From IMG/VR virus record IMGVR_UViG_3300017991_000062, positions 32,001-96,000 of that record: a DNA stretch of 64,000 nt, one strand, 5' to 3'. The notes below the pieces were generated by a model, which worked only from the letters and a program-made list of their open reading frames with translations, made no database searches and had not been told where the DNA came from. A program made the position numbers and the translations under genes. The DNA comes from a virus. Positions 3,470 through 60,151 of the stretch are shown in pieces. Each line of letters begins with the position of its first letter. Position 1 is the first letter of the stretch.

Positions 3470-4642
3470 ATGCCGAGCATCGCACGCGGCCAGGAGTGCA
3501 CCACCTCGATCCTGAACTGGTTCATCCTGGTGAACGGAACCAAGACCGACGCCTTTGACGTCGGATGCCAGATTTGGGACATCAGCGGCGGCCTGCCGGG
3601 CTCGGTGGTGTGGCCGACCCCTGGTGACGACACTGCCTGGGAGAACGTGACGAACGCGCCTGGCAAGTTCTCGGTCGGCTCCTACTACCCGTATGACAAC
3701 ACGCTCGGCGCCGGCTGGACGCCGGCCCTGGGCGAGCCCCTGGGCGACCACCTCATCAAGTGGCGCTGGAAGATCACGGCGGCGGCGCCCTACATGGCGG
3801 GGCAGGAGGCATTCACCGTCCTCGCCGAGTCGAGCGGCACGACGCAGGACGAGTACATCACCGTTCAGCAGGTGCGGGACGAGGGCGTGCCCCTGCCAGC
3901 AGACGGCGGCCCGAGCGACGATGAGATCCTCGCGCTCATCCAGCTCTTCAGCGGCCTGGTCGACAAGGTGACCAGGTGCTTCTTCACGGCCCGCACCTTC
4001 GAGCTACGCCTCGACGGGAGCGGTCACGACACCCTGTTCCTCCCGTGGCCCGTCATCGAGATCACGGCGGTCGAGGTGAACCTGCTCGCTGGCACTTCGC
4101 CACGCTCGGGCACGGTGCTCACGGAGGACCAATACGAGGTCTACAACCGCGACCTGCCCAACGACAAGCGGACGCCGCGGATCGAGCTGGTGAGTCAGGG
4201 GCAGAGCATCTACGCCGGAACCGACCTGGGCAACTTCGCTGTCGGCACCCTGAACCAGCGCATCAGCGGGACGTTCGGGTGGGTCGAGAACGGCCAGGTG
4301 CCCCTCCCCATTCAGCAGGCGATGAAGCGCCTGGTCATCCGCAACCTGGGCAAGCTGGCCACGGGCGAGGGCGGCTCGGAGTCCTGGGGTGGCGGCGGCG
4401 CGGCGGCCGGCTCGTGGGGCATCCTCGAAGAGCAGACCGACCGGCACCGGATCAAGTTCACGGATGCCAAGGCCGGCGAGGGGATGGGCGCGGACGCGAC
4501 GGCGCTCCAGCTCATCAACGACCCGGTGGCCTACGCGATGATTATGCAGTACCGCATCGCGACTCCCGCGATTGCCTGGTCGAGCAGGCCCGTCGAGCGT
4601 GGTATGATGAACGGCGGCGAGTCGAACCGTAGGTGCTACTGA
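3470..4642 (+). CDS. Head-tail adaptor (HK97 gp6/SPP1 gp15-like C-terminal domain) with N-terminal extra domain
   Basis: YITVQQVR...SDDEILALIQ...VDKVTRCFF...LDGSG..TLFLPWPVIEITAV...GTFGW...VPLPIQQAMKRLV; position upstream of closure/tail genes. Confidence 0.75.
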   Translation: MPSIARGQECTTSILNWFILVNGTKTDAFDVGCQIWDISGGLPGSVVWPTPGDDTAWENVTNAPGKFSVGSYYPYDNTLGAGWTPALGEPLGDHLIKWRWKITAAAPYMAGQEAFTVLAESSGTTQDEYITVQQVRDEGVPLPADGGPSDDEILALIQLFSGLVDKVTRCFFTARTFELRLDGSGHDTLFLPWPVIEITAVEVNLLAGTSPRSGTVLTEDQYEVYNRDLPNDKRTPRIELVSQGQSIYAGTDLGNFAVGTLNQRISGTFGWVENGQVPLPIQQAMKRLVIRNLGKLATGEGGSESWGGGGAAAGSWGILEEQTDRHRIKFTDAKAGEGMGADATALQLINDPVAYAMIMQYRIATPAIAWSSRPVERGMMNGGESNRRCY

Positions 4643-5046
4643 TGCCGAACCCGAACCTCATTCACCCGATCCCGGTCGTGCTTGAGCAGCTCGACAAGGC
4701 TGCCACGCTGTACGACGAGGACGCGCAGGAGCCCATCGGCCGGCCGGAGTACACCCAGGTCAGGCTCCAGGCCCAGGTGAAGTGGAGGGCCATCGACGAT
4801 CCCGACTGGATGTGGTCGGGACGCCGGGAGAGCTGGAAGGGCTACCTGCTCTTCAAGCGCTCGACCCTGGTGACCAGGGGTGTCACCATCGCGAAGGGCG
4901 ACCAGATCACGACCATCGGGCACCGCGCCTGCCGGCTCTACGTGGAGGAGTTCGAGGACGCCGGCCACTACCCCGACATCGGCGGGAACGGTCTCATGCT
5001 CGCGTTCTTCTCCGACCGCAGCCCGGCCGAGCCCCAGGAGGTCTGA
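4642..5046 (+). CDS. Putative head closure (stopper) protein
   Basis: 134 aa, coupled TGATG, directly follows adaptor; 'IAKGDQI' type motif. Confidence 0.6.
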   Translation: MPNPNLIHPIPVVLEQLDKAATLYDEDAQEPIGRPEYTQVRLQAQVKWRAIDDPDWMWSGRRESWKGYLLFKRSTLVTRGVTIAKGDQITTIGHRACRLYVEEFEDAGHYPDIGGNGLMLAFFSDRSPAEPQEV

Positions 5047-5765
5047 TGGCCACGAAGCGCGACTCCAAGGGCCGGTTCGTCGGAGGCGGCGGAAGCGGCA
5101 GCAAGGGCGGGAGCAGTTCACCCACGGCTGGCGGGACGAAGATCGGCGCGGCTGCCATCAAGAAGTCGGGGCTTGTCCTGTCGGGCGACTGGAAGAAGTA
5201 CGGCGCAACCCTGGACACCTTTGCTGACAACTTCAGCCGGCTTGTGGGCCTGGCGACAGAGCGGAACGCTATCGAGGTCCGCGACGAGATCCGGCGGCGC
5301 ATCGACCAGAAGAAGTACGGCGAGAACGCACCGCGCACCCTCATCCTCAAGGGCGGCGGATACCCCCTGGTCGGAAAGAGCGGTTCCCCGGAGAAGGCCA
5401 AGGGCGCCTCTGGTGGTGGAACCGGGGCGGCCCTGCTGAAGTCGCTCGCCTACGAGATGGAGGGGCCGCTGGCCGCGGTCGTCGGTGTCAACCGATGGGC
5501 GGTGTGGAAGGGCCGGAAGAACATCGGCAAGATCGTCCATGATGGCATCGTCATCAACGTCACCGATAAGATGCGCAAGTACTTCCTCTTCCTCGCGTTC
5601 AAGTACGGCGACAAGGGCTTCAAGCCGCTGCACCCGAAGACGACGAAGATCCGTATCCCGCCCCGGCCGTTCATCAAGACGGTGGTGGACGATGGCATGG
5701 TGCAGGCCCGCATGAAGAAGGAGTGGTCCAAGGCGGTCGACGCGGCATTCGCGGGAGGGAAGTGA
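5046..5765 (+). CDS. Tail completion / virion morphogenesis protein (HK97 gp10/Mu gpG-like)
   Basis: LLKSLAY...AVVGV...VHDG...IPPRPFI motif; basic; N-terminal KRDSKGRF motif; coupled starts/stops. Confidence 0.7.
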   Translation: MATKRDSKGRFVGGGGSGSKGGSSSPTAGGTKIGAAAIKKSGLVLSGDWKKYGATLDTFADNFSRLVGLATERNAIEVRDEIRRRIDQKKYGENAPRTLILKGGGYPLVGKSGSPEKAKGASGGGTGAALLKSLAYEMEGPLAAVVGVNRWAVWKGRKNIGKIVHDGIVINVTDKMRKYFLFLAFKYGDKGFKPLHPKTTKIRIPPRPFIKTVVDDGMVQARMKKEWSKAVDAAFAGGK

Positions 5766-31723: not shown

Positions 31724-33080
31724 CGTGAAGAAGTTCGATGCTGATATGGAGCGCGCCGTGCTCGCCCGGTGCCTCTCCGACCTGACGTTCCTGCGCGAGG
31801 CTGTCGGCGTGGCCGCGGCTCACGACTTCAGCTCGAAGCCTCTCGGGTGGGTGTTCGGCGAGATGAAGCGCCACTATGAGCGGCGGCGCGAGCTGATGTC
31901 GGGGCGCACCCTGGTCGGCCGGCTCAAGGCTACGATCAAGGATGCCGACGCTCGCGAGGCGCACGTCCGTTCCATCCGTGAGGTGCTCGCTGCCGACTCC
32001 GCTGATGCCGGTGCTGCCCTGGACCTGCTGACCGACTTCGTTCGCTTCCAGCGCCTTCACGCAACCGGCGCGGCCCTGGTCGAGAAGCTGGAGGCCGGTG
32101 ACCTGGAGGCGGCCGAGGCCGCCGTCGCTCGGCAGTACCGGCAACGGGTGGGCGGTCCCGACTACGACCGCCTCGACTGGTGGGGAACCTTCGATGAGCG
32201 GCAGTCCACCACCCTCGCGGAGATCAAGGCGGGGAAGCGGCTGTCGATCCGCACCGGCATCAGGAAGCTCGACAAGGTCATCCTCGGGCAGCACGTCGGC
32301 GAGCTTGGGATGCTGCTCGGCACCACCGGCAAGGGGAAGACGATCTTCCTGCTCAACTTCACCGTGGCGGCTGCGCTCCAGGGCTTCGGCGGTATCTTCT
32401 TCGCGCTGGAGATGCCGGCCCGGCAGGTGTGCCGGCGCCTGGACGCCCGCATCCTCAAGACGCCCTACACCCGGTTCCGCAGCCTGGACTTCGATGAGCG
32501 CGAGTGGAAGTCGCTGCGGAAGATGATGGTGCGGCGCAAGCGTTCCTTCGAGGGGATGATTGATGTGGTGTCGGTGCCCGTGGCCAAGTGCACCACGTCG
32601 CTCCTGGAGGAGGTGATTGAGGAGCGCCGCGCTGACGGCCTGCCGGTCGACTTCGTGATGTTCGACAGCCTCGACCATGTCCGGCCCGAGACCAGGCGCC
32701 GCACCGAGAGCAAGCGCATCGAGGCGAGCGACGTGTACTGGTGGGCCAAGGGCCTCGCGATGGGCAGCGGCGACACCCCAGGCTTCGCGAGCTGGACCAC
32801 CTGCCACGCTGGTCGGGAGTGGCGCTACCGCATCGCCACCCCGGAGGCTGCGAGTGAAGCCTACGACAAGAGCCGTATCTGCGACGACGTGGTCAGCATC
32901 AACCAGTCGCGGGCCGAGGAGAAGGTTGGGCTGATGACAGCCTACCTCGCCAAGTACCGCGAAGGCCCGAGCTGGATTAAGATCCCGCTGTCCACGAACT
33001 ACCAACTGATGACGTACCGCGAGCTTCGGGAAGCCGAGCGTGCTGCCATCGCTGGCGAGGAGGAGGAAGACGATGAATAG
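31716..33080 (+). CDS. dnaB: DnaB-like replicative helicase
   Basis: ERAVL...; TGIRKLD; GTTGKGKT; FALEM; MFDSLD; KYREGP. Confidence 0.9.
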   Translation: MASVKKFDADMERAVLARCLSDLTFLREAVGVAAAHDFSSKPLGWVFGEMKRHYERRRELMSGRTLVGRLKATIKDADAREAHVRSIREVLAADSADAGAALDLLTDFVRFQRLHATGAALVEKLEAGDLEAAEAAVARQYRQRVGGPDYDRLDWWGTFDERQSTTLAEIKAGKRLSIRTGIRKLDKVILGQHVGELGMLLGTTGKGKTIFLLNFTVAAALQGFGGIFFALEMPARQVCRRLDARILKTPYTRFRSLDFDEREWKSLRKMMVRRKRSFEGMIDVVSVPVAKCTTSLLEEVIEERRADGLPVDFVMFDSLDHVRPETRRRTESKRIEASDVYWWAKGLAMGSGDTPGFASWTTCHAGREWRYRIATPEAASEAYDKSRICDDVVSINQSRAEEKVGLMTAYLAKYREGPSWIKIPLSTNYQLMTYRELREAERAAIAGEEEEDDE

Positions 33081-41697: not shown

Positions 41698-42249
41698 GTG
41701 AAGCTCACCGACCTCCGCAAGCGCTACAGCAAGGGCAAGCGCCCGAAGCGCACCCCGGCAGGCTCCAAGCCGAGAGCGACGGGCCTGCCGGGGCAGAAGG
41801 CGTGCCGGAACTGCGACGGGACCGGGAAGGTGCTGGTGGACGGTGGCCCGAGCGGGAGGCCACCGAGGGAAGTCACCTGCTCGCGTTGCGACGGCACCGG
41901 CATCGCGGTCGACCCCGACACGAAGGGTCCGCGCAAGCGGCACGTCGCTATCGAGGAAGAACACCCCGGCCTCGCAGGTGGTGAGCGCGATGGCACCACA
42001 AAGAAAAAGCTCGACCTGAAGAAGATAGCGGAACGCCGGGCCAAGGTGGGGCGTGCGAAGTACACCTTGGTCACCGACGTCGCTGGCCGCGAGGATGCGA
42101 TCCTGCTCTTCGGTAAGCACAAGGGCAGCAAGGTGTCAGCGCTCGCTGCTAGTAGAGAGACGCGGGGATACCTGATGTGGATGCTCGACGAGGGCTTTGA
42201 CGATGAGCTGAAGCGGGCGGTGCTCGTTCAGCTCGGGATGGATTCGTGA
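41698..42249 (+). CDS. DnaJ-type zinc finger + C-terminal FGKHKG (ExoX-C/DUF3820-like) domain protein
   Basis: CRNCDGTG, CSRCDGTG; LLFGKHKGSKV...GYLMWML. Confidence 0.7.
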   Translation: MKLTDLRKRYSKGKRPKRTPAGSKPRATGLPGQKACRNCDGTGKVLVDGGPSGRPPREVTCSRCDGTGIAVDPDTKGPRKRHVAIEEEHPGLAGGERDGTTKKKLDLKKIAERRAKVGRAKYTLVTDVAGREDAILLFGKHKGSKVSALAASRETRGYLMWMLDEGFDDELKRAVLVQLGMDS

Positions 42250-45200
42250 TGGCGCGCGACCCCTGGGCCAACCTCCACGTCCACAGCATGTTCAGCCTCC
42301 TGGACGGTGTGGGCTCATATGCCGACTACGCGAAGCGACTCAAGGCCGACCTGGAACGGCGTGACGACGACTCGCCAGGCGCGCTCGCAGCGACCGAGCA
42401 CGGTAGCATGAGGGGCATCGTCCAGCTCCAGAAGGCGGCCGACGAGCACGAGCTGAAGCCGGTGTTTGGTGTCGAGCTGTACGTGTCGGCTGACCACCGG
42501 GTCAAGGCCCTCTCCGAGGAGGACAAGGCCCTGGTGAAGGAGCAGCCGGCAAAGGAGCGGCGCTCGTTCCAGGTGGCCCTGGAAACCTACCGCGGCATCC
42601 GGCCGCGCTGGCACCTGACCGCCTGGGCGCTGAACAACGTCGGCCTGCGCAACCTCATCAGGCTGTCGAGCGCGGCCTGGGTCGACGGGTTCTACTACAA
42701 GCCACGGGTCGACTTGAAGTTGCTGGAGCAGTACTCGGAAGGCGTGGCCGTGGGCACCGCCTGCCTCGGCGGCATCCTCGCAGAGCCGCTGCTCAAGGAC
42801 GAGCCCGCGCTGGCCGTCGAACACGCCCACTGGCTCCGCGACGTGTTCGGTGACCGCGCCTATGTTGAGCTGATGCCGAATGGCCTCGCGGATCAGAAGC
42901 GGGTGAACCGCGGGCTTCTGAAGCTGGCGCGCTCGGTGGGGCTCACGCCCATCGCCACGGTCGACACCCACTATACGAAGCCGAAGGACTGGAGGCTTCA
43001 AGACACGCTGCTCGCGGTGCAGACCAACGACCGCATGAGCAATCCCCACCGCTGGACCATCCCGGCCCGCGACTTCTGGTACATGACCGCGGCCGAGGTG
43101 CGCAAGCTGTTCCGGCGGAACCACCCGTCGCTGAAGCACAGCACCATCGACAGCCTCATCCGCAACGCTGCCGAGCTGGCCGGCCGGTGCGAGGCGCGTC
43201 TGGAGTTCGACCGCTTCGCTGCCCTCCTGCCGAGCCCCACCGGACGGGACACCACTCCCGAGGAGGACTTCAACGAGCTGAAGAAGCTGTGCGTCGAGGG
43301 CTGGCACTGGCGCGACATCCACACCCGAGCGGCCTGGGTCGCCGGCCGCGACGGACGCAAGACCGAGCGAGTGGTGACGCAGTATCGCGAGCGGCTGAAG
43401 CGCGAGCTGCGGGTGTTCCGCGACATGAAGTTCTCCCGCTATGCCTTGGTCGTTCGCGACCAAGTGGACTGGGCCAGAGGCGAGGGCATCCTGGTCGGCC
43501 CAGGCCGCGGCAGTGCAGGCGGCAGCCTGGTCGTCTACCTGCTCGGTATCACCAGCATCGATCCCATCGAGCACGACCTGCTCTTCGAGCGTTTCATCGC
43601 GCCTGGCAGAATCGATCTCCCAGACATCGACATCGACTTCGAGAAGGAACGCCGGCAGGAGGTCATCGCGTACATGGTCGAGAAGTACGGCCGCGAGCAG
43701 ACCGCACAGCTCACCACCTACAGCTCGATGAAGGGACGCGGCTGCTTCCGCGACGTGGCGCGGGTGCACGAGGTGCCACCGCGCGAGCTGAACGCGACGG
43801 CCAGTGCCATCCTCCAACGGCTGCCCGGCCACGAGCGCGAGGACAAGTGCATCGCTGACTCGCTGGCCACCTCGCCCCAGTGCAAGGCGTTCGCGAAGAA
43901 GCGGCCTGTCGTGTTCAGCGTGGCCGAGCGCCTGGAGGGCACCATCCGGCAGGTCGGGCTCCACGCGGGCGGTGTCGTGGTGGCGCCGATGCCCCTGGAC
44001 GAGGTGGTGCCCCTGGAGAGCCGTGCTGACAAGGACGGCGGTGGACGGGTGCCGGTCATCGCGCTCGACTACCGTGACGCCCAGGAGTGCGGCCTGGTGA
44101 AGTTGGACGACCTCGGACTCACGAACCTGACGGTGGTGCGCTACGCCCTGGAGGCTATCGCGGAGCACCACGACGCCGAGCTGACGCTGGCCGACCTGGA
44201 GGCGAGTCACTACGACGACCGCGACGTCCTGGACGCATTCAACGAGCCGTCCAACCTCACCGGCATCTTCCAGTTCGACTCGACCAGCATGGTCGGCATC
44301 ATGCAATTCAAGGTCGAGCGCTTCGAGGACCTGATGGTGCTCAACGCGCTGAACCGGCCCGGCCCGATGCGCAGCGGCCTGGCGAACATCTACGCGGCGA
44401 GGGCCACCGGCAAGAAGAAGCGGAAGAAGGAGCACCCTATCGTCGAGCGGATCACGGCGTCCACCCTGGGCGCCCTGGTGTACCAGGAGCAGGTCGCGCG
44501 GCTGTTCGTGGACCTCGCCGGCTACAGCGCGGGCGATGCGGACAAGATTCGGAAGAAGATCGGCAAGAGCGAGGGTGAGAAGGCCATCGCCCCCGAGGAG
44601 GCCAAGTTCATCGACGGCGCTGTGCGCAACGGCATGAGGGCCGAGGTCGCTGCGAAGCTGTTCAAGCGAGTGTTGAAGTTCGGCGGCTACGGCTTCAACC
44701 GCTCCCACGCTGCCGAGTACTCCGCGCTCGGGTATTGGGAGATGCTGCTCAAGGTGCGCTACCCCGGCCCGTTCTACCTGGGCGTCTTGCAGGCGGCCAA
44801 GGATGACGCCGACAGAGCCCGCTACATCGAGGCGGCCCACCGCGACGGGGTGGAGGTGCTGACGCCCGACGTGAATGAGAGCCGGCGCGCCTACGCCCTG
44901 TCGGTGTCAGGCTCCATCCGGCCACCGTTGGAGGGCATCAAGGGTGTCGGTCCGAAGGCGAGCCTCGCTCTGCTGGAGGGGCAGCCCTACACGTCCTTCA
45001 CCGACCTGGTGAGCCGTACCGACTCCCGGCAGGTGCACCGCGGCATCGTGACCGCCCTCGCCGAGGCTGGCGCTCTGGACACCATCATCCCGAACCGGCG
45101 CTTCGCGGTGGAGAACGCCGAGGAGTTGATGAAGCGGGCTCGCAAGGGCGATGCTGCCGTGGACTTGGACATCGAGGTGAGCAAGACGGCGACCGATTGG

Positions 45201-45965
45201 GACGAGCGCGAGCGCGCCAGGCGTTCTATCGAGTTGGGAGTGTTCGGGCCAGGAGCTAGCATCCTCGACGCCTATGCCGACCTCTGGGAGGCCATCGAGT
45301 CGGCAGGTGTGGAGCTGACCACCCTGGGCGGCATCCAGTGGAACGAGTCCCTGGGCTGGTTCAAGGTGGTGGCACGCGAGTCGAAGGTCATCACGACCGA
45401 CGACGGCCGGGTCGCCTCGCTGGTGCTCACGGATGGCACCGGCCCTGACCTGCGCGCTCGGATGGAGAGCAACGAGCTGGACCGCTACGAGAAGGCGGTG
45501 AGCCGTGCCTCCGGGAAGGCCGTGCTGGTGCGGGCCAGCTTCAACGCGAAGACGAAGCAACTGCGAGCCCTGAAGGTGTACGACGCGGCGGCGCTCCACA
45601 AGGCATGGAGAACGGACGAGTTGTCCGACGATGAGGCGCAGGTGTTCGTGAACCCGCTGGCCGCGGTGAAACCGCGGCATGACCTGCGCAAGTCGCTCGC
45701 TGGCGAGCCCTCGCTGCTCAAGTTCGTTGGCCGCGTCGAGGCGATGAAGCTGTGGAAGGATCGCAAGAAGAACACGATGGCGTTCTTCGATGTGCAGGCG
45801 TACCGCGGCAGCGTGCCGGCGGTGTGCTTCGCGTCGTCGTTCCGTCACTACCGTTCGGACCTGTATGTCGGGGCCGTGGTGCGGATCGAGTTGATACGAA
45901 CCGAGGGCGGCGGGTGGGCGCTCGACCATGAGAGCGGCTGCGAGCTGGAGAACATCGGGGAATGA
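42249..45965 (+). CDS. dnaE: DNA polymerase III alpha subunit (family C)
   Basis: LHVHSMFSLLDG PHP; GPGRGSAGGSLV; LLFERF; PDIDIDF; HAGG; GIFQF; YQEQV; FNRSHA. Confidence 0.96.
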   Translation: MARDPWANLHVHSMFSLLDGVGSYADYAKRLKADLERRDDDSPGALAATEHGSMRGIVQLQKAADEHELKPVFGVELYVSADHRVKALSEEDKALVKEQPAKERRSFQVALETYRGIRPRWHLTAWALNNVGLRNLIRLSSAAWVDGFYYKPRVDLKLLEQYSEGVAVGTACLGGILAEPLLKDEPALAVEHAHWLRDVFGDRAYVELMPNGLADQKRVNRGLLKLARSVGLTPIATVDTHYTKPKDWRLQDTLLAVQTNDRMSNPHRWTIPARDFWYMTAAEVRKLFRRNHPSLKHSTIDSLIRNAAELAGRCEARLEFDRFAALLPSPTGRDTTPEEDFNELKKLCVEGWHWRDIHTRAAWVAGRDGRKTERVVTQYRERLKRELRVFRDMKFSRYALVVRDQVDWARGEGILVGPGRGSAGGSLVVYLLGITSIDPIEHDLLFERFIAPGRIDLPDIDIDFEKERRQEVIAYMVEKYGREQTAQLTTYSSMKGRGCFRDVARVHEVPPRELNATASAILQRLPGHEREDKCIADSLATSPQCKAFAKKRPVVFSVAERLEGTIRQVGLHAGGVVVAPMPLDEVVPLESRADKDGGGRVPVIALDYRDAQECGLVKLDDLGLTNLTVVRYALEAIAEHHDAELTLADLEASHYDDRDVLDAFNEPSNLTGIFQFDSTSMVGIMQFKVERFEDLMVLNALNRPGPMRSGLANIYAARATGKKKRKKEHPIVERITASTLGALVYQEQVARLFVDLAGYSAGDADKIRKKIGKSEGEKAIAPEEAKFIDGAVRNGMRAEVAAKLFKRVLKFGGYGFNRSHAAEYSALGYWEMLLKVRYPGPFYLGVLQAAKDDADRARYIEAAHRDGVEVLTPDVNESRRAYALSVSGSIRPPLEGIKGVGPKASLALLEGQPYTSFTDLVSRTDSRQVHRGIVTALAEAGALDTIIPNRRFAVENAEELMKRARKGDAAVDLDIEVSKTATDWDERERARRSIELGVFGPGASILDAYADLWEAIESAGVELTTLGGIQWNESLGWFKVVARESKVITTDDGRVASLVLTDGTGPDLRARMESNELDRYEKAVSRASGKAVLVRASFNAKTKQLRALKVYDAAALHKAWRTDELSDDEAQVFVNPLAAVKPRHDLRKSLAGEPSLLKFVGRVEAMKLWKDRKKNTMAFFDVQAYRGSVPAVCFASSFRHYRSDLYVGAVVRIELIRTEGGGWALDHESGCELENIGE

Positions 45966-54758: not shown

Positions 54759-55505
54759 GTGCACACCGACATCGTTCGCGAGCTAGAGGCGAGGCTGGTT
54801 GACCTGGGCGCGGTGTGGATGCCGACCCCGAATGTGGGCGGCCGGTTCCTTGCCTCGGACCCCATCGGCATCGTCATCCACTACACGGGCGGTCCTCATG
54901 GCACCGCTGCGAAGTGGCTCTGCAACCCGAAGGCAAAGGCGAGTGCTACCCTGGTCATCCAGCGCGACGGTGGTCTGTACTGGCTCGTCAACCTGGACCG
55001 GATCGCGTGGCACGCTGGTCGGTCGGAGCTTCACGGCCGCTACGGCTGCAATGACTTCACCTGGGGTATCGAGCTGGAGAACTGGGGACCGATTGTGCGG
55101 CGCGGTGATGGATACTACGTCTGGCCGCCTGTGAAGGACGGGGTGCCCCAGTTCCAGCGGCGCTTCAGCGGTGGCGAGGTGCGCCACTACCCCGAGCATC
55201 GCGAGTACGAGTTCTGGGAGGGCTACACCGAGGCCCAGATCGGCAAGCTCAACCAGGTGCTTCAGGCGCTCCTGTGGCCGTCGCTTATCAACGGCCCGCT
55301 CTTTCCCCGCGAGAGCATCGTCGGGCACGAGCACGTCTCGCCAGGCCGCAAGCTCGACCCTGGTCCGGCCTTCCCGTGGCGCGATGTGCTGCGCGAGGCG
55401 TACCACGGAAGCATCGCCGTCGCTGACCTGGACAAGGCCCTGGACGACGAGAGCGACGAAGCGTTCTTCGCCGCGATGGGTGCCAAGCCAATCGACCGGA
55501 GATGA
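54759..55505 (+). CDS. N-acetylmuramoyl-L-alanine amidase (Amidase_2/AmpD-like), probable endolysin
   Basis: IVIHYT; AWHAG.S; GIELEN; YTEAQ; VGHEHVSPGRKLDPGPAFPW. Confidence 0.9.
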   Translation: MHTDIVRELEARLVDLGAVWMPTPNVGGRFLASDPIGIVIHYTGGPHGTAAKWLCNPKAKASATLVIQRDGGLYWLVNLDRIAWHAGRSELHGRYGCNDFTWGIELENWGPIVRRGDGYYVWPPVKDGVPQFQRRFSGGEVRHYPEHREYEFWEGYTEAQIGKLNQVLQALLWPSLINGPLFPRESIVGHEHVSPGRKLDPGPAFPWRDVLREAYHGSIAVADLDKALDDESDEAFFAAMGAKPIDRR

Positions 55506-55620
55506 GGCGAGGGGGGTAGCAGAGTAGAGGTCGCTTGGAATGGGTGCAGGCCGTGGGGGCTGTGCTCTGTGCACTCTGCTCATTTGTCGGGATCTGGTTA
55601 CTGACGGGAGGGAATAGAAG

Positions 55621-57015
55621 GTGAAGCGCAGCCGGCCACAACTTCAGCGCGGGACGTGCCTGTTCGACCTGCACACTTGGGCCGGCGGCAAGCCTCCCCT
55701 CTCGGTGCAGTACTTCGTCAACCGGCATTCGCTGCCTGTGGTGACCGACCCTTCCGACCTGGGCGAGTTCCGAACCGTGCTGTTCTCCCTGCACACTGCC
55801 CGCGACGCGCTCAAGGTGGCGCGGCTCGCTCACCACAAGGCCCCGGGTCAGGAGTGGATTGCCGGCGGCGGCGCCGCGGTGAACCCGACGCCCGTGTCGT
55901 GGCTGATGGACTATGTGCTCGTCGGTGATGGCTTCGAGGCGTTCCCGCTCCTGCTCCAGGGTGAGCGTGAGCTAGAGGGCCTGTTCGATTGCCAAGCCCG
56001 CGACCCGGTGCGCTACCGGGACGAGGGGATCTTCCCCGAGCCGTATGCTCCGCGCAACCTGCTCCTGACCGTGGGCTGCCGGCATCGGTGCGCGTTCTGC
56101 ATCAGCCCTTGGAGGCGTCAGTACCGCGAGCAGAGCCCGGCCGTGGTGCAGCGCTTCATCGCTGACGCGCCTTGCTCGCAGCTCGGGCTCACCACGACCA
56201 GCGCGGTCGACGTGTCCTACCACGCCGACCTCCTGGAGTGGCTTCGCGAGCACGGCCGCATCAACAACTCGATGAGCAACACGGTTCGCGGCGTCTCTGA
56301 GGGCGCCCTCACCGGCTGGAAGGGCAACATCCTCTTCGGCCTGGAGGGCATGCGCGAGGAGGTGCGCGGCTTCGTCAACAAGCCCATCCCGGAGTCGCTG
56401 GCCCTGGAGAAGGTGTTGCTCGCGCTGCGGCACGGGTGGAAGGTGCGGCTCACCTATCAGTTCAACCTCCCGGGCGACCGCCCCTCCGGCGTGGAGAACG
56501 TGCGCAGCCTGGTCGAGAAGGTACGCCGCGAGCTGCGCAAGGGCCAGCTCGAAGTCTCGTTTATCCCGCATCAGCCGTCGCCATTCACTCCGATGCAGTG
56601 GGAGCGGCCACGGTGGGACGAGGAGACGCGACGGGCGATCCTGGACATGCGCAAGTCCTACTTCGGCAGCGGTAAGACCGGCGTGAGCGTGTTCGTGCCG
56701 ACGCCGCTCGGCGCCCCGAGGTGGGTGACCCAGATCGTGTCCGAGCGCATCCCGGTGACGCCCGGCGTGGTGAAGGCGATGGATGCCATCCCGGCCACGG
56801 CCAGCTTCGAGAAAGCGGTGGACGTGCTGGAGTCCCACGGTGTCGATGCTGCGCGCTGGTTCAGGCGCCAGAGCACGAACGAGGCGCTCCCCTGGGAGTA
56901 TGTCGAGGTCCATACCAGTCGCGAGCGTCTGCTCGCGGAGTTCAACAAATTGCGGCGCCGTGTCCAGCGGCGTGAACGTCAACGGCCAACTGCGGGGGAA
57001 TCCGATGCCGCGTAG
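55621..57015 (+). CDS. Radical SAM protein with B12-binding-like N-terminal region
   Basis: GCRHRCAFC (CxxxCxxC); IAGG...NPTP...DYVLVGDG; FGLEG..E..R..VNKPI; FIP.P.TP.QW. Confidence 0.88.
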   Translation: MKRSRPQLQRGTCLFDLHTWAGGKPPLSVQYFVNRHSLPVVTDPSDLGEFRTVLFSLHTARDALKVARLAHHKAPGQEWIAGGGAAVNPTPVSWLMDYVLVGDGFEAFPLLLQGERELEGLFDCQARDPVRYRDEGIFPEPYAPRNLLLTVGCRHRCAFCISPWRRQYREQSPAVVQRFIADAPCSQLGLTTTSAVDVSYHADLLEWLREHGRINNSMSNTVRGVSEGALTGWKGNILFGLEGMREEVRGFVNKPIPESLALEKVLLALRHGWKVRLTYQFNLPGDRPSGVENVRSLVEKVRRELRKGQLEVSFIPHQPSPFTPMQWERPRWDEETRRAILDMRKSYFGSGKTGVSVFVPTPLGAPRWVTQIVSERIPVTPGVVKAMDAIPATASFEKAVDVLESHGVDAARWFRRQSTNEALPWEYVEVHTSRERLLAEFNKLRRRVQRRERQRPTAGESDAA

Positions 57016-58405
57016 GAGTGAGGGCCTGTCTGCGGGCCTGGCGGAAAGATACGACGAGGCGATGGTGGTGTTGCTGGAGCACGAGCCCCCCGAGGGCTAC
57101 CACCTCGCATTCAGTGGCGGCAAGGACAGCATCGTCCTCAAGGCCCTGGCCGACGACGCGATGGTGCGGTACGACGCCCACTACAACGTCACCACCATCG
57201 ACCCCCCGGAGGTGACTGCCTTCATCCGCGAGCACCACCCCGACGTCGTGTGGGACCGCCCCTCGCGTTCGTTCTTCCGGTGGATGCAGACGCAGGGCTT
57301 CCCCCTGCGTCACAAGCGCTGGTGTTGTCGCAAGCTGAAGGAGCGCAAGGCGCCCGGTCGCACGGTGCTGCTCGGGCTGCGCCACGAGGAGAGTTTCGGG
57401 CGGTCGGGCAAGGAGGTCGTCGACACCCGCGGCGACGAGGTACACGTCCACCCGATCCTGGAGTGGTCGAGCGACGAGGTGTGGGAGTTCATCAGGGCGC
57501 GCGGGCTGCCGTATCCGTCGCCCTATGACGAGGGCTTCCACCGGCTCGGCTGTCTGTTCTGCCCGTTCAAGTCGCAGGCGGTGCGGGATGCCGAGGCGGC
57601 TCGCTACCCGAAGTTCGTGCGGGCCTTCGAGCGGGCCTTCGTCCGAGCCTGGACCCGTGGCCAGGAGCGGGGCCTCAAGGGCTTCGCCCGGTGGCGGTCG
57701 GGCGAGGAGATGTTCGCCTGGTGGATGCAGCGCGACGAGAAGCTGCCCCCCATCATCCAGCCCGAGCCCCGGGTGCTCCCGCCCGTGAAGCGCCGGGTGC
57801 TGACCAGCGTGGTGAGCTACCCTGACCGCGGGCCGTGGGGCGACCACGCCTTCCGGGGCAACTGCTCCGGTCACCTGCTCGTGGACCTGTGCTGCTACTT
57901 CGCCCCGGCGTGCGTCATGGACCCGATGGAGGGCAGTGGCACCACCCGCGATGTCTGTGCCGACCTGGGTATCGACTACACCGGCTTCGACCTGTCCAAT
58001 GGCGAGGACCAGAACGTGTTCAAGCAGCCGTGGCAACCGGAGCGGTTCGACCTGGTGTTCTGTCACCCGCCCTACGCAGACATGATTCCCTATGGCGAGG
58101 AACCGCCCTGCCTCTCGACGTTGAAGCCCGCGCAGTTCGGCAAGGTGCTCGTCAAGCTGGCCGAGCTGCTACTCACCCACGCTGTAGCCGAGGGCGGCCA
58201 CCTCGCGATCCTGGTCGGCTCGCTGCGGCGCGGTGGGCGCATCTGGAACTTCGCCCGCGACCTCATCGAGTGGCGTGAGCCGAGCGAGCCAGAGATTATC
58301 AAGGTGCAGCACCACGTCACCAGCTCGGCCACGCGCACCGGGATGATGTACGGCAACCCGTTCATCCCCATCGTGGACGAGCGCGTCTTGATCTGGAGGA
58401 AGTGA
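57005..58405 (+). CDS. Fusion: PAPS/APS-reductase-family (PP-loop, Fe-S) domain + amino-DNA methyltransferase domain
   Basis: AFSGGKDS, RWCC...KE, G.R..ES..R, PI..W...VW, YDEGF.RLGC..CP; then RG.WGD..FRGNCSG, DPMEGSGTT (motif I), HPPY (motif IV); one continuous frame. Confidence 0.88.
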   Translation: MPRRSEGLSAGLAERYDEAMVVLLEHEPPEGYHLAFSGGKDSIVLKALADDAMVRYDAHYNVTTIDPPEVTAFIREHHPDVVWDRPSRSFFRWMQTQGFPLRHKRWCCRKLKERKAPGRTVLLGLRHEESFGRSGKEVVDTRGDEVHVHPILEWSSDEVWEFIRARGLPYPSPYDEGFHRLGCLFCPFKSQAVRDAEAARYPKFVRAFERAFVRAWTRGQERGLKGFARWRSGEEMFAWWMQRDEKLPPIIQPEPRVLPPVKRRVLTSVVSYPDRGPWGDHAFRGNCSGHLLVDLCCYFAPACVMDPMEGSGTTRDVCADLGIDYTGFDLSNGEDQNVFKQPWQPERFDLVFCHPPYADMIPYGEEPPCLSTLKPAQFGKVLVKLAELLLTHAVAEGGHLAILVGSLRRGGRIWNFARDLIEWREPSEPEIIKVQHHVTSSATRTGMMYGNPFIPIVDERVLIWRK

Positions 58406-58587
58406 TGCCCGTCATCGGCCGGCACAGCTTCGGCGCTAAGTGCATCCGCTGCGGTGCTCCGGGCGCCGAGGAAAGCAAGGTGCGCGCCCCGAGCACTGCG
58501 GACAAGCCCGCGAAGATCGGGGCCGGCTACTTCCACGTCGTCCGCAAGTGCAAGCGCTGCGGCTTCACCTGGAAGAAGAAACAATGA
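58405..58587 (+). CDS. Small zinc-ribbon protein
   Basis: CIRCG...CKRCGFTW; TGATG coupling. Confidence 0.65.
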   Translation: MPVIGRHSFGAKCIRCGAPGAEESKVRAPSTADKPAKIGAGYFHVVRKCKRCGFTWKKKQ

Positions 58588-58883
58588 GGGCCGCGGCTGT
58601 CGCCCTGCTTCTGGTGCTCGTGGGCTGCTATCCCGAGCCGCGGCCATGCCCCGACGTGGCGGCCCTGCGCGAGCGTCTGAAAGCGCTGGAGGCCGAGGTC
58701 GCTGCGATGCACTCCGGGTCGATTCGGTCCTGTGCCATCCTGGCCGAGCGGTGCGAGAGCATGGCGGCCCTCGTGGACGGTTCGCTGCGGAGCTTCATCG
58801 AGGCTCACGTCGACCCCGCCGAGCGCGCCAGGCGTGAAAACCGGGTGAGCGAGTTCCGAGGCGTCGGTGGTGGCTCGGACTGA
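58584..58883 (+). CDS. Putative lipoprotein with coiled coil
   Basis: MRAAAVALLLVLVG-C lipobox. Confidence 0.65.
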   Translation: MRAAAVALLLVLVGCYPEPRPCPDVAALRERLKALEAEVAAMHSGSIRSCAILAERCESMAALVDGSLRSFIEAHVDPAERARRENRVSEFRGVGGGSD

Positions 58884-58889
58884 CCTGAT

Positions 58890-58918
58890 GCCCGACAGCC
58901 GACCGGATCTGGAACTGT
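58890..58918 (+). promoter_or_regulatory. Putative phage-sigma promoter, copy 4
   Basis: GCCCG-N17-GAACTGT, intergenic, upstream of 58956 ORF and ARH-like gene. Confidence 0.65.
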
Positions 58919-58955
58919 CCTGTGCCGACCCGCTGCGAGCGGGTGGAGGAAGACG

Positions 58956-59285
58956 ATGCTGAACAGCGCACAGCTCAAGGAGGCACTCCAGGCCGCGGCC
59001 GAGCCGACGATGCTGACGCCTGCCGAGCGGCGCGGTGCGAACAAGCTGCTCGCGAGCACCGGCTTCGTCCGACGCCTACACAAAGCGCTGGACGAGCACA
59101 CGAAGGAGCGAGTGGTGCGCGCCCCGACGCTGGCGAGTGAGCTGGCCGAGTTGTTCAGTAGCACCACGACCACGGCCATCAAGGCGGCCGAACGCCTGTG
59201 CGAGCTGTACCTGGTGCTCCCCGCCTTCCCTGACGTGAGATACCTGCGAAGCCCGAAGGCACGGGCGAAGAAGAGGAGGAGATGA
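58956..59285 (+). CDS. Hypothetical protein
   Basis: GGAGG RBS; ATGA overlap with next gene. Confidence 0.65.
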   Translation: MLNSAQLKEALQAAAEPTMLTPAERRGANKLLASTGFVRRLHKALDEHTKERVVRAPTLASELAELFSSTTTTAIKAAERLCELYLVLPAFPDVRYLRSPKARAKKRRR

Positions 59286-60151
59286 TGGACTACGACCGCT
59301 TCCTGGGCGGCTGGATTGGCGCGGCCCTGGGCAGTGCCCTCGGCCGGTTCACCGAGGGCCAGTCGCCGCAGTGGGTGGAGGACCAGTACCCCCGCGGCCT
59401 GCGCCGCTTCCCCGAGGAGAGCCGGCCCGGCGCCGATGCGATCCTCGCCTACGACACCAGCGACGTCATCTCCAGCCGGCGCGAGTTCCCGCGGGCGGTC
59501 GGCTCCATCGCCAACCCCTACTCGGCCTTCCTGCGCGTCCTGCCGGCCGGCCTCGCCGCCGCGGCGGCCGGGCTCACCGAGGCCGAGCTGGACGACATCG
59601 CCGTCGAGGCCATGCTCCAGGACCGCGAGCCCAAGCCGGCCGCGGCCATCCTTGGCGCGCTGCTCTACGCCCGGCTCCTGCGGCAGCTCGTGCTCGGGAT
59701 GCCGGCCGACGAGGAGATCGACCAGTGTCTCTTCGGCCCCATCGAGCACATCGAGCGGCCGTCGCCGGCCCTGGTGCTCACCGAGCCCGGCGAGACGCAG
59801 ACCGAGGCGTGGGGCGTGGCCCGCATCACCGTCACCGAGGGCGTCGGTGCTGGCCTGCGCAGCCTGGAGCGCTTCGACTTCCTGGACGACCTGCTCGACC
59901 CGAACCTGCTCGCGATGGCGGTCGTCGCCTGGGCGCTCACCACCGACAAGGCGGTCGACCGTGGTCTGGAATACCTCATCGCCCGCGGCGGTTCGGCCAG
60001 CGACCTCGGCATGATTGGCGGCGCCGTCATCGGCGCCCGCGACGGCTTCAAGGACATCCCCCAGGGCTTCCTCCGGGGCCTGTCCGAGCTGCCGAGCATG
60101 GTCGAGGCCGGGAATCGCCTGTTCAAGGCGGCCGAGGACTACCGGCGGTGA
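59282..60151 (+). CDS. ADP-ribosylglycohydrolase (DraG/ARH)-fold protein, catalytic motifs degenerate
   Basis: DRFLGGWIGAALGSALG..TEG; AFLRVLP; GGSASDLGMIGGAVIGARDGFKDIP. Confidence 0.75.
   Translation: MMDYDRFLGGWIGAALGSALGRFTEGQSPQWVEDQYPRGLRRFPEESRPGADAILAYDTSDVISSRREFPRAVGSIANPYSAFLRVLPAGLAAAAAGLTEAELDDIAVEAMLQDREPKPAAAILGALLYARLLRQLVLGMPADEEIDQCLFGPIEHIERPSPALVLTEPGETQTEAWGVARITVTEGVGAGLRSLERFDFLDDLLDPNLLAMAVVAWALTTDKAVDRGLEYLIARGGSASDLGMIGGAVIGARDGFKDIPQGFLRGLSELPSMVEAGNRLFKAAEDYRR

Follow-up and report, generated by a model that had tools for sequence, protein, structure and literature searches.

The window analyzed here (64,000 nucleotides, positions 32,001 to 96,000 of the IMG/VR record IMGVR_UViG_3300017991_000062) belongs to a high-GC, 113-kb phage genome and contains a locus that we interpret, with a probability of roughly 0.55, as an accessory DNA-modification or anti-restriction island built from separately mobile cassettes, one of them now fused to a gene that the phage already carried. 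The novelty lies in the evolutionary history of this locus and in a fusion of a PP-loop (PAPS-reductase-like) domain with a methyltransferase that is unprecedented in the databases searched.

A preliminary description, made from the letters alone, had pointed to a radical SAM gene overlapping an open reading frame (ORF) that joins these two domains, and ORF calls and a motif check bore out both the ORFs and the motifs. The radical SAM gene overlaps the fusion ORF (57005-58405, 466 aa) by 11 bp, each of the two has a Shine-Dalgarno sequence ahead of its start, and a search between the two genes found no terminator above the shuffle expectation, all of which indicates operon-like packing. The longest frame of the fusion is 56783-58405, and alignment of homologues places the true start at the ATG at 57005. 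Given that homologues reach E-values of 1e-77 for the PP-loop half, 1e-116 for the methyltransferase half and 1e-100 for the radical SAM protein, these ORFs are not products of chance. The DNA-directed role suggested previously is supported by the setting: neighbor annotation, which covered 40.5-63.4 kb of the window, places the cassette within a phage DNA-metabolism block that includes DnaE, RecA, SbcCD, an exonuclease and UDG (Table 1).

Table 1. Features of the locus, in positions of the window
Feature	Position	Strand	Evidence
N-acetylmuramoyl-L-alanine amidase gene (left flank)	54759..55505	+	Pfam Amidase_2, 5.9e-23
Lineage-specific insertion, ~2.28 kb: 115-bp leader, radical SAM gene and PAPS-reductase-like coding part	55506..57784	+	tblastn synteny, junction DNA alignment
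Radical SAM gene (predicted), 464 aa	55621..57015	+	CxxxCxxC motif, Radical_SAM/TIGRFAM profile matches, homologue alignment
PAPS-reductase-like PP-loop ATP-pyrophosphatase domain (predicted), 260 aa, without its own stop codon	57005..57784	+	PF01507, phrog_424 and BrxP matches
Resident orphan amino-methyltransferase domain (predicted), 'HPPY' family, 206 aa	57785..58405	+	Identity to stand-alone proteins, profile matches, AF2 model
Fusion joint, CCGCCC followed by GTGAAGCGCCGG	57779..57796	+	Junction alignment; bridged by Logan contig
61-aa conserved gene (right flank), 4-bp overlap with the fusion stop	58402..58587	+	56-64% identity in L083-L085

Insertion at the start codon of a resident methyltransferase gene

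Two near-complete relatives of 107 kb, G001 and G002, have their gene order in common with this phage, and in both of them a stand-alone methyltransferase gene directly follows the amidase gene. The common synteny detected with tblastn is Rad50-PDDEXK-exonuclease-UDG-h112-amidase-[MTase]-h61-h109-ARH-h110-h221-Rrf2. The amidase is 61% and 55% identical to its counterparts in L084 and L085, in which only about 8 bp separate its end from the start of the methyltransferase gene, and the 61-aa gene of the right flank also stands after the stand-alone methyltransferase in relatives. Neither a PF01507 match nor a homologue of the radical SAM protein was found anywhere in the G001 and G002 genomes (positive controls accompanied the PF01507 search). 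Because these relatives carry only the methyltransferase behind the amidase, with no PAPS-reductase-like or radical SAM gene, the ~2.28 kb in question (55506-57784) is an insertion. Its 3' boundary is exactly the methyltransferase start codon: the GTG at 57785-57787 occupies the place of the ancestral ATG, with no stop codon before it. The genome comparison thus shows that a 2.28-kb piece carrying a predicted B12-type radical SAM gene and a putative PP-loop gene entered at the start codon of the resident methyltransferase, and the joint absence of the two genes from the relatives, together with their overlap, suggests that they probably arrived as a unit. A small orphan HPPY methyltransferase just behind the amidase is thus a feature of the phage lineage, and since the cassette was inserted without an intervening stop, the PP-loop enzyme and the methyltransferase are translated as one 466-aa protein.

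The fusion joint occurs in a single record, and no further fusion of a PAPS reductase with an HPPY methyltransferase was detected among the best 150 methyltransferase and the best 120 PP-loop relatives. The joint includes a GTGA that yields a TGA in the +1 frame, resembling a start/stop overlap one base out of register, so that one nucleotide within a C-run decides whether the two frames are joined. The single ORF could accordingly be artefactual, or have arisen very recently by a neutral accident: the PP-loop and methyltransferase genes would then be truly separate, overlapping by GTGA, with their frames merged through the mutation or misreading of one base in that C-run. The shape of the joint (CCGCCCGTGAAG, with the +1-frame TGA directly over the ancestral start codon), its restriction to one record and the depth of ~5.6 in the only run found are all compatible with such an event. 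Nevertheless, we consider it highly unlikely. Misassembly, which the preliminary description had listed among the ways in which the fusion could prove spurious, was checked against a 1605-bp Logan contig, a separate build that spans 56249-57853 and both junctions with 0 differences and no variant; this contig derives from the sole run holding the sequence, probably the source sample, at a depth that leaves some room for a single-base error. Furthermore, frame 0 fits the tail of stand-alone homologues to the last residues (...RVLPP versus ...SVLFE), which confines any frameshift to the last ~3 codons of the PP-loop part. In G001, a Shine-Dalgarno sequence stands ahead of the methyltransferase start; its loss in the present phage is what one would expect of a start that has become internal.

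The PP-loop domain

The N-terminal half of the fusion matches PF01507 (PAPS_reduct, 5.4e-22) and phrog_424 (2.1e-31), aligns end to end with stand-alone homologues of 256-263 aa at 42-54% identity, and contains all 40 family-invariant residues. That the PP-loop is intact, as originally proposed, is supported by the invariance of SGGKDS (aa 37-42), CC (107-108) and CxxC (183-186) in 22 aligned family members; the four cysteines, C107, C108, C183 and C186, form the ligand pattern of APS reductases (CC...CxxC), and binding of a [4Fe-4S] cluster is predicted.

This pattern, the PF01507 match and the PHROG name 'phosphoadenosine phosphosulfate reductase' would be consistent with a viral cysH that serves assimilatory sulfate reduction as an auxiliary metabolic gene, the annotation that genes of this kind usually receive. 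In accord with the original argument against sulfate assimilation, such a role appears extremely improbable. Every curated CysH/APS-reductase cut-off is missed by far (TIGR00434, 52.2 vs 165.1; TIGR02057, 38.6 vs 254.2; TIGR02055, 38.4 vs 235.3; NF002537, 45.3 vs 154), and the similarity to solved PAPS/APS reductases is remote, approximately equal to that with FAD synthase. The catalytic cysteine of CysH sits in an ECGLH-type C-terminal tail; in the 22-sequence alignment, no cysteine beyond C183/C186 is conserved, and the domain ends with WW, eight residues and a tail that leads into the methyltransferase, so that the catalytic tail is absent. The fusion to a methyltransferase and the lack of other cys genes among the neighbors annotated across 40.5-63.4 kb also argue against this role.

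Among defence models, the domain is nearest to DNA-modification enzymes of the BrxP/SspD type: the PADLOC profiles, which come without cut-offs, gave a match to BrxP at 7.7e-19 (65 bits) that is limited to the core, one to SspD at 3.5e-6, and none to the DndC model at E<=0.01. BrxP is an SspD-SspB fusion that makes phosphorothioate together with BrxC and, in type 4 BREX, stands in place of the PglX methyltransferase; a P-loop NTPase partner (DndD, SspC or BrxC) is essential to phosphorothioate synthesis (PMC12914056). By analogy, the PP-loop part would be a DndC/SspD/BrxP-like ATP pyrophosphatase that adenylates a target, its Cys4 Fe-S site would probably transfer sulfur from a host cysteine desulfurase, and the fusion might lend it a DNA-binding, base-flipping scaffold, as in BrxP. 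The net effect would be the escape of phage DNA from restriction or from phosphorothioate-based defences.

Weighing against the proposed modification island, known phosphorothioation requires the P-loop NTPase, and no DndD/SspC/BrxC-type partner was found among the genes annotated across 40.5-63.4 kb, where the sole ABC-type ATPase is SbcC, the partner of SbcD, which relatives without the cassette encode as well. Likewise, no cysteine desulfurase (PF00266) was detected in the 113-kb phage genome (14/14 positive controls). Both components could be supplied by the host. Such reliance on the host would also fit a PP-loop protein that acts as a counter-defence factor, interfering with or mimicking host Dnd, Ssp or BREX-4 systems, for example by hijacking DndD/SspC-type partners; the radical SAM gene would then be incidental, as would the fusion. 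A phage PAPS reductase is reported to aid evasion of Dnd (Piel 2022, as cited in PMC13551039), and genes of this type are found in Aca-regulated operons and at hot spots of anti-defence genes (PMC13551039); another paper describes what phage PAPS reductases do as an open question (PMC11437467). The predominance of the stand-alone form among phage homologues is in line with this explanation, but it leaves the tight coupling to the radical SAM gene unaccounted for, and we deem it unlikely.

The radical SAM protein and the methyltransferase domain

The radical SAM gene has a GTG start preceded by the Shine-Dalgarno sequence GGGAGGG. The CxxxCxxC motif (C153/C157/C160) is kept in the sole close homologue, the only one among 5.8 billion proteins. 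Against the Pfam profile Radical_SAM (PF04055), the protein reaches 27.8 bits in hmmscan, below the cut-off of 29.5, and 28.3/30.4 bits in the genome search (30.4 with neighbors); distant relatives score 77-85 bits. The motif and the PF04055 core together assign the protein, by sequence, to the radical SAM superfamily. The N-terminal region may resemble B12-binding domains, with weak matches to TIGR03960 (1.8e-11), TIGR04013 (1.3e-5) and PF19864 (0.0018), and the layout appears to comprise this Rossmann-like region, a partial TIM-barrel core and a helical C-terminus, with secondary structure taken from a low-confidence AF2 model (pLDDT 49). The nearest ESM-Atlas clusters consist of viral 450-500-aa Radical_SAM/Radical_SAM_N2 proteins. 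The enzyme would either share a substrate with the fusion protein or simply occupy the same slot as a passenger with a role of its own.

The methyltransferase half is likewise full-length; it contains DPMEGSGTT followed by HPPY and is 80/75/72/60% identical to stand-alone ~207-aa proteins starting MKRKPLTTVVSYPERG. On its own, it matches N6_N4_Mtase weakly (0.015); the family profile identifies solved beta-class N4/N6 DNA methyltransferases (2zie, 7.4e-14; also M.MboIIA, DpnA, CcrM and N4C methyltransferases). These matches point to a SAM-binding motif I and a catalytic core homologous to amino DNA methyltransferases (PF01555). Compared with the beta class, the motif order is permuted, motif I (DPMEGSGT) preceding motif IV, and the canonical motif IV, (D/N/S)PP(Y/F/W), is replaced by HPPY both here and in 119 of the best 150 relatives; a literature search for a link between HPPY and methyltransferases found none. 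Most members of the HPPY family do not reach the Pfam cut-off and carry the label 'hypothetical protein'. The AF2 model (pLDDT 87.5) has a class I methyltransferase fold consisting of a bare Rossmann core, and there is no target-recognition domain in the 206 aa, which makes little sequence specificity probable. Other fusion partners within the family are ParB_N+HTH, NADAR and ASCH. This part of the fusion would retain its stand-alone role, namely SAM-dependent methylation of an exocyclic amine, the target being most likely N6-adenine or N4-cytosine of phage DNA.

The non-canonical HPPY tetrapeptide and the structural neighbors of the model weigh against a DNA target and make an RNA substrate possible. 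The nearest folds are those of tRNA m2G and rRNA m6A methyltransferases, namely TrmN (Z 12.9, rmsd 2.5, 145 aligned), Trm11 (12.5, 3.9, 165) and METTL5 (11.7, 3.2, 157), with T4 Dam close behind (11.2, 3.3, 139). Hence the locus might encode a thiolation-methylation set for tRNA or rRNA, with the PP-loop enzyme resembling TtuA/TtcA, the radical SAM protein MiaB/RlmN and the methyltransferase Trm11/TrmN/METTL5. The best NCBIfam matches of the PP-loop half, the 'hypothetical protein' equivalog models PRK13795, PRK08557 and PRK08576, point in the same direction; we take these to be archaeal PUA-PAPS-reductase-like proteins, PUA being an RNA-binding domain. However, the Z scores are only 1-2 above those of generic class I methyltransferases (10.5-11), the family profile is closest to DNA N4/N6 methyltransferases, the ParB_N+HTH, NADAR and ASCH partners are typical of DNA methylases of mobile elements, and the genomic setting is one of DNA metabolism. 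RNA targets therefore seem quite improbable.

Co-occurrence of the partners and comparison with known systems

Stand-alone PP-loop homologues are abundant in phages and are by far the commonest form. In a survey of 65-80 of them, DNA methyltransferases were the commonest neighbors, accounting for 16 of the 118 genes at most 2 genes away; at most 16 of 65 loci (about a quarter, a raw rate that takes no account of the phage replication-module background) have one within this distance. Tight packing is exemplified by phage NatCom_17901 (MTase-PAPS-MTase) and by MetMV (PAPS, then methylase). A short radical-SAM-like family, phrog_9298, different from the radical SAM family of the cassette, is present in 12 of 80 PP-loop loci (~11-15% of such loci have it nearby), with 7 of the 9 copies located at most 4 genes away being directly adjacent; reciprocally, a PP-loop gene lies no more than 5 kb away in 9 of 80 phrog_9298 loci and is the adjacent gene in 5 of these. 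About 85% of the PP-loop homologues have no radical-SAM-like gene inside 6 kb. This short family is no fixed partner but comes and goes beside similar PP-loop genes: in the pairs L044 and L045, and L076 and L025, PP-loop genes with 84-86% DNA identity occur with and without it, and the radical-SAM-associated copies are scattered over the tree. The radical SAM family of the cassette itself was found beside a PP-loop gene only here, apart from one very distant cousin in L010. The expectation that homologues of the two genes would co-occur thus largely failed, given the unique fusion, the radical SAM pairing seen only here and the relatives with the methyltransferase alone.

These observations bear directly on the notion of an integrated pathway, in which the methyltransferase, PP-loop and radical SAM enzymes would work one after another at a single base or backbone position of DNA, yielding a hypermodification not described so far. 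The shared absence of the radical SAM and PP-loop genes from both relatives and their 11-bp overlap are compatible with it, as are the 1:1 stoichiometry and co-localisation that an in-frame fusion imposes on its halves and the recurrence of two unrelated radical SAM families (the long one including the L010 cousin, and phrog_9298) beside PP-loop homologues. Conversely, the fusion is unique among the relatives compared, the methyltransferase is used alone in related phages, the majority of PP-loop homologues lack both partners in their vicinity, similar PP-loop genes differ in whether a radical-SAM-like gene is present, and the joint has the appearance of a side effect of insertion between two genes. 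We regard such a pathway as rather unlikely; methylation followed by radical and sulfur chemistry is possible but unsupported and purely conjectural. A bolder idea, to which we assign a low likelihood, is that the fusion is a self-contained DNA-modifying enzyme: the methyltransferase scaffold would bring a DndC/BrxP-like PP-loop Fe-S domain to DNA and, with the B12-type radical SAM enzyme, install a non-methyl mark (e.g., of phosphorothioate, thio or methylthio type) with no NTPase partner. If so, the mark would be made without the component on which every known phosphorothioation system depends.

An accessory island assembled from separate cassettes, the reading that we favor, can be set against several known systems. 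The stand-alone phage 'PAPS reductase' proteins (phrog_424; ~257 aa), of which the N-terminal half of the fusion is a full-length member, have similar neighborhoods, with DNA methyltransferases, replication and terminase genes and radical-SAM-like genes; their genes, however, end in a stop codon of their own, and among the best matches listed there is no fusion to an HPPY methyltransferase. The beta-class PF01555 enzymes (TTHA0409, 2zie; M.MboIIA; DpnA; CcrM) have a homologous core with motif I DPxxGSGT, whereas the HPPY family is permuted, has the non-canonical motif IV, is only ~200 aa long and lacks a target-recognition domain; family members fused to ParB_N+HTH resemble orphan methylases of plasmids and phages, and these relatives acquire DNA binding through the ParB/HTH fusion. 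The 'B12-binding' radical SAM proteins of the TIGR03960/PF19864 type, which include the distant relatives L082 and L109 as clear PF19864+PF04055 proteins, have the CxxxCxxC core, a Rossmann-like region at the N-terminus and an extension at the C-terminus in common with the protein described here, which scores far below the TIGR03960 cut-off (43 vs 462 bits) and, by ESM-Atlas, belongs to a viral lineage. Finally, BrxP, SspD and DndC share with the fusion a PF01507-type PP-loop domain with conserved cysteines and a context of mobile elements and conflict. BrxP, in which a PAPS-reductase domain is joined to a DNA-targeting SspB-like module, offers a parallel to the fusion itself, although the match is limited to the core (profile positions 135-338 of 779) and the DUF4007/SspB part has no equivalent here; in contrast to all three, the domain described here comes from a phage, forms one protein with a methyltransferase and has a coupled radical SAM gene.

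Insertion of the cassette upstream of a methyltransferase gene

The phage under study (G000) is represented by a 113,077-bp record (100% complete according to CheckV, GC content of ~67%). The window contains one long run of plus-strand genes, as indicated by third-position GC analysis, and the cassette, which consists of the radical SAM gene and the PAPS-reductase-like PP-loop coding part of the adjacent 466-aa fusion ORF, is located at the end of the DNA-metabolism block. The locus is genuine, and the motifs reported in the preliminary description, namely CxxxCxxC (C153/C157/C160 of the radical SAM protein), SGGKDS, CC, CxxC and HPPY, are all present in ORFs that coincide with those described there, including the overlap between the two genes. 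A megablast search against GenBank phages produced no matches, and no sigma-70 promoters or terminators above the shuffle expectation were predicted over 55300-59300.

Features of the cassette locus (window coordinates)
Feature	Position	Strand	Remarks
DnaE-type polymerase	42246-45965	+	
RecA; SbcD/Mre11; SbcC/Rad50; PDDEXK nuclease; 5'-3' exonuclease; UDG-family glycosylase; small ORF	between DnaE and amidase, in this order	+	
Amidase	54759-55505	+	left neighbor of the radical SAM gene
Radical SAM gene	55621-57015	+	GTG start, GGGAGGG ribosome-binding site upstream
Fusion ORF	57005-58405	+	true start ATG 57005; 11-bp overlap with the radical SAM gene
Methyltransferase half	57785-58405	+	
61-aa ORF	directly 3' of the fusion ORF	+	
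ADP-ribosylglycohydrolase-family gene	59282-60151		kept in all three phages
Rrf2-like protein, 359 aa	61248-62327		N-terminal Rrf2 domain

Using the methyltransferase half as the query of a profile scan, we identified three viral contigs that encode this protein with 61-71% identity, two of which are near-complete genomes, G001 (107,406 bp, direct terminal repeats, 100% complete) and G002 (107,749 bp, 95% complete). Between Rad50 and the Rrf2-like gene, G000, G001 and G002 have the same genes in the same order, with protein identity of 36-75%, and the cassette is the sole difference at this site. In both relatives, the methyltransferase is encoded by a separate gene (~207 aa) that starts a few bases 3' of the amidase stop codon; the records of these phages contain no matches to PF01507 (positive controls were found in 14/14 genomes) and no relatives of the radical SAM protein. 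The four closest homologs of the methyltransferase half (80, 75, 72 and 60% identity) are all stand-alone proteins, and the N-termini examined (the homolog P0275 and the G001 copy) start with MKRKPLTTVVSYPERG. In the DNA alignment, similarity between G000 and G001 restarts exactly at the methyltransferase start codon, which is a GTG at 57785 in G000. Given that similarity returns exactly at this old start codon and that the relatives lack the cassette, the segment 55506-57784 (~2.28 kb) is a lineage-specific insertion, made up of a leader followed by the radical SAM gene and a PP-loop gene that is complete except for its stop codon. This insertion history is the main new result of the analysis, and the natural comparison of G000, which has the cassette, with G001 and G002, which lack it, is a rare handle that defines which constructs to compare. 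The product of the ADP-ribosylglycohydrolase-family gene could undo the ADP-ribosylation of protein or DNA that DarT-type and comparable defenses carry out. The Rrf2 protein, which combines an IscR-like, iron-dependent regulator domain with an unassigned C-terminal half, is common to both relatives, and because of this conservation we place it outside the cassette.

The C-terminal end of the PP-loop part coincides with that of its stand-alone homologs (...RVLPP vs ...SVLFE-stop), and this part has no stop codon; the old methyltransferase start codon follows directly (CCGCCC-GTG-AAG), so that the fusion is end-to-end with zero linker. The GTGA at the joint yields a TGA in the +1 frame over the old start, and the arrangement resembles a classic start/stop overlap shifted one base out of register. 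Because of this TGA, a single-base change in the C-run, real or artefactual, determines whether the genes are coupled but separate or fused into one. Misassembly, considered in the preliminary description as a possible source of the fusion, was checked against an independently assembled contig from the only public run that contains this DNA, a sediment metagenome that is probably the source sample (depth of only ~5.6); the contig spans both junctions (56249-57853) with 0 differences. We consider the fusion genuine with a probability of about 0.9 and, fused or not, the three coding units are one translationally coupled operon. The fusion appears to be unique: among the best 150 relatives of the methyltransferase half, we found no PAPS-reductase domains, and the best 120 relatives of the PP-loop half do not exceed 305 aa. 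The 284-aa protein P0099 was considered as a second fusion and dismissed since the extension at its N-terminus shows no relationship to PAPS reductase. Along with the exact insertion history and the large, unnamed family of HPPY methyltransferases described below, this end-to-end fusion is one of three new points.

The methyltransferase and PP-loop families

The last 206 residues of the fusion ORF are a full-length member of a family with 760 cluster representatives at E<=1e-3 (clusters at 50% identity; P0125-P0393 are among the members). These minimal proteins (~200 aa), mostly annotated as 'hypothetical protein', share the motifs YPxRGPxGD-x4-RGNCSG, DPMEGSGT, HPPY (119 of the best 150 relatives of the methyltransferase half) and IIKxQHN; in the literature, we found no paper tying HPPY to methyltransferases. 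The family profile matches solved β-class N4/N6 DNA methyltransferases (2zie, 7.4e-14; M.MboIIA, DpnA, CcrM and N4C enzymes), with the motif order permuted compared to the β class because motif I precedes motif IV. The best 150 relatives are either stand-alone or fused to ParB_N+HTH, ASCH, HTH or NADAR domains, the latter being a DarT1-associated domain. The identification with DpdM was rejected given that DpdM is an unrelated DUF3109 protein. An AF2 model (pLDDT 87.5) represents a bare class I methyltransferase core without a recognition domain, and the nearest folds are amino-methyltransferases, namely TrmN (Z 12.9, rmsd 2.5, 145 aligned), Trm11 (12.5, 3.9, 165), METTL5 (11.7, 3.2, 157) and T4 Dam (11.2, 3.3, 139), with scores that barely exceed those of generic methyltransferases (Z 10.5-11). 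Most likely, the methyltransferase part would serve as an orphan protective methylase of low specificity, acting on the exocyclic amine of either adenine or cytosine in the phage DNA; action on RNA, to which the Trm11/TrmN-like fold points, is a minor alternative.

Residues 1-260 of the fusion ORF correspond to a complete member of a very large phage/metagenome 'PAPS reductase' family (~257 aa; PF01507, 5.4e-22; phrog_424, 2.1e-31), with more than 1000 homologs at 42-54% identity and with SGGKDS, CC and CxxC invariant across the alignment. Few viral 'auxiliary metabolic genes' are reported as often as the phage 'PAPS reductase' genes, and the literature either counts them as sulfur metabolism or terms their role an open problem, a question on which this locus bears. 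Like the preliminary description, we argue against sulfate assimilation, and we rule this function out: every CysH/APS-reductase model scores the PP-loop half far under its cut-off, the family alignment lacks a catalytic cysteine conserved at the C-terminus, the solved PAPS/APS reductases are only remotely similar, to about the same degree as eukaryotic FAD synthase, and no cys genes are found among the annotated neighbors (40.5-63.4 kb of the window). The in-frame fusion, a second rare handle, which ties a PAPS-reductase-like domain to a DNA-methyltransferase-type domain, also argues for a role in nucleic acid transactions rather than in metabolism.

Outside the window, at 3601-5142 of the record (L110:769-2307), G000 encodes a 513-aa Gat-QueC fusion (QueC, 2.7e-42; GATase_6/7, 1e-13); QueC is stand-alone in G002 and missing in G001, and a PF01702 (TGT) search of the G000 genome produced no matches. 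As judged from these domains, G000 probably also carries 7-deazaguanine DNA modification. The PP-loop half as a substitute for QueC was rejected because the deazaguanine genes vary among the relatives independently of the cassette: G000 has its own Gat-QueC, in G002 QueC is present and the cassette absent, and in G001 both are absent.

Radical SAM proteins and the neighborhoods of PP-loop genes

The radical SAM protein has a single close homolog among 5.8 billion proteins (P0124, encoded on a 1.8-kb contig; 42% identity). Neither the radical SAM protein nor the fusion protein matched any viral contig in single-sequence scans, alignment-based scans with the radical SAM protein found no relatives in viral contigs and 185,579 species genomes, and an alignment-based metagenome scan retrieved one 22%-identical relative with no PP-loop gene beside it. 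The profile has no matches among solved structures, and the AF2 model from a 2-row alignment has a pLDDT of 49; in the ESM-Atlas, the protein falls among viral radical SAM clusters of 450-500 aa. Three distant cousins were detected (loci L082, L109 and L010), the first two without a PP-loop gene nearby. The L010 cousin (19% identity over 302 aa, E 3e-6, collinear) is encoded two genes upstream of a PP-loop gene. In that locus (L010:1452-4596), the PAPS-reductase-like gene is flanked by the genes for the two terminase subunits, and the 478-aa cousin immediately precedes the gene for the small one; the large-subunit gene is on the other side.

We surveyed the neighborhoods of stand-alone PP-loop homologs in 80 viral loci. 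Among 118 neighbors within two genes (65 loci), the commonest family is DNA methyltransferases (9 N6_N4, 3 C5, 2 Dam and 2 D12), as in Methanosarcina virus MetMV, where the PAPS gene is followed by a methylase gene, and in the gut phage NatCom_17901 (L107, PV036423.1, 14495-18812), which has a tightly packed MTase-PAPS-MTase run whose first two genes overlap by 4 bp. The large terminase gene follows a few genes downstream of the latter run.

A short radical-SAM-like family, phrog_9298 (~280 aa, CxxxCxxC), is represented in 12 of the 80 PP-loop loci; nine copies are no more than four genes away from the PP-loop gene, seven of these directly adjacent. Conversely, a PP-loop gene is found within 5 kb in 9 of 80 phrog_9298 loci and is adjacent in five. 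This family is separate from the G000 radical SAM protein, the hhalign match between the two (62% probability) being confined to the surroundings of the cluster motif. The radical-SAM-associated PP-loop proteins are scattered over the tree (74 proteins; a quick tree with a weak backbone). Next to PP-loop genes with 84-86% DNA identity, the radical-SAM-like gene is inserted in L044 and L076, and absent or replaced at the same spot in L045 and L025; the association is thus not obligatory. Directly upstream of the PAPS-reductase-like genes, phrog_9298 accordingly appears as an insertion/replacement polymorphism (L044:5069-5971 vs L045; L076:2341-3354 vs L025), with a 162-aa gene filling its slot in L025. 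Because such neighbors are swappable, the PP-loop enzymes would seem to need no radical SAM protein, whereas in G000 the 11-bp overlap and the joint absence from the relatives suggest that the two genes arrived and are expressed together.

The preliminary description read the radical SAM, PP-loop and methyltransferase parts as one multistep hypermodification pathway. The DNA-modification framing is reasonable; co-occurrence gives no support to the multistep pathway, as the fusion does not recur and, outside G000, the only relative of the radical SAM protein with a PP-loop gene nearby is the distant cousin in L010. We regard such a pathway as an unlikely, minority hypothesis; the results agree better with a swappable island.

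Possible roles of the cassette and comparison with known systems

A new DNA mark, should the cassette make one, would be relevant to phage-defense biology and to restriction-resistant DNA tools; if it makes none, the locus still warns against reading viral cysH-like genes as sulfur auxiliary metabolic genes. As far as sequence similarity indicates, the nearest functionally studied proteins to the PP-loop part are the phosphorothioation subunits BrxP, SspD and DndC, which insert sulfur into the DNA backbone with the help of ATP and a cysteine-ligated Fe-S site. An argument against simple phosphorothioation by the PP-loop part is that G000 encodes neither the obligatory NTPase partner (annotated region 40.5-63.4 kb) nor a cysteine desulfurase (PF00266, 113-kb genome). 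The PP-loop protein may rely on host factors, follow a different chemistry or be a counter-defense factor; in line with the last option, a phage PAPS reductase has been reported to aid Dnd evasion, according to a second-hand account in PMC13551039.

With respect to architecture, BrxP consists of a PAPS-reductase-type domain fused to a DNA-targeting module and takes the place of the methyltransferase present in other BREX types (PMC12914056). Both BrxP and the G000 fusion join such a domain to a second module and, by analogy, the G000 fusion would tether its PP-loop domain to DNA.
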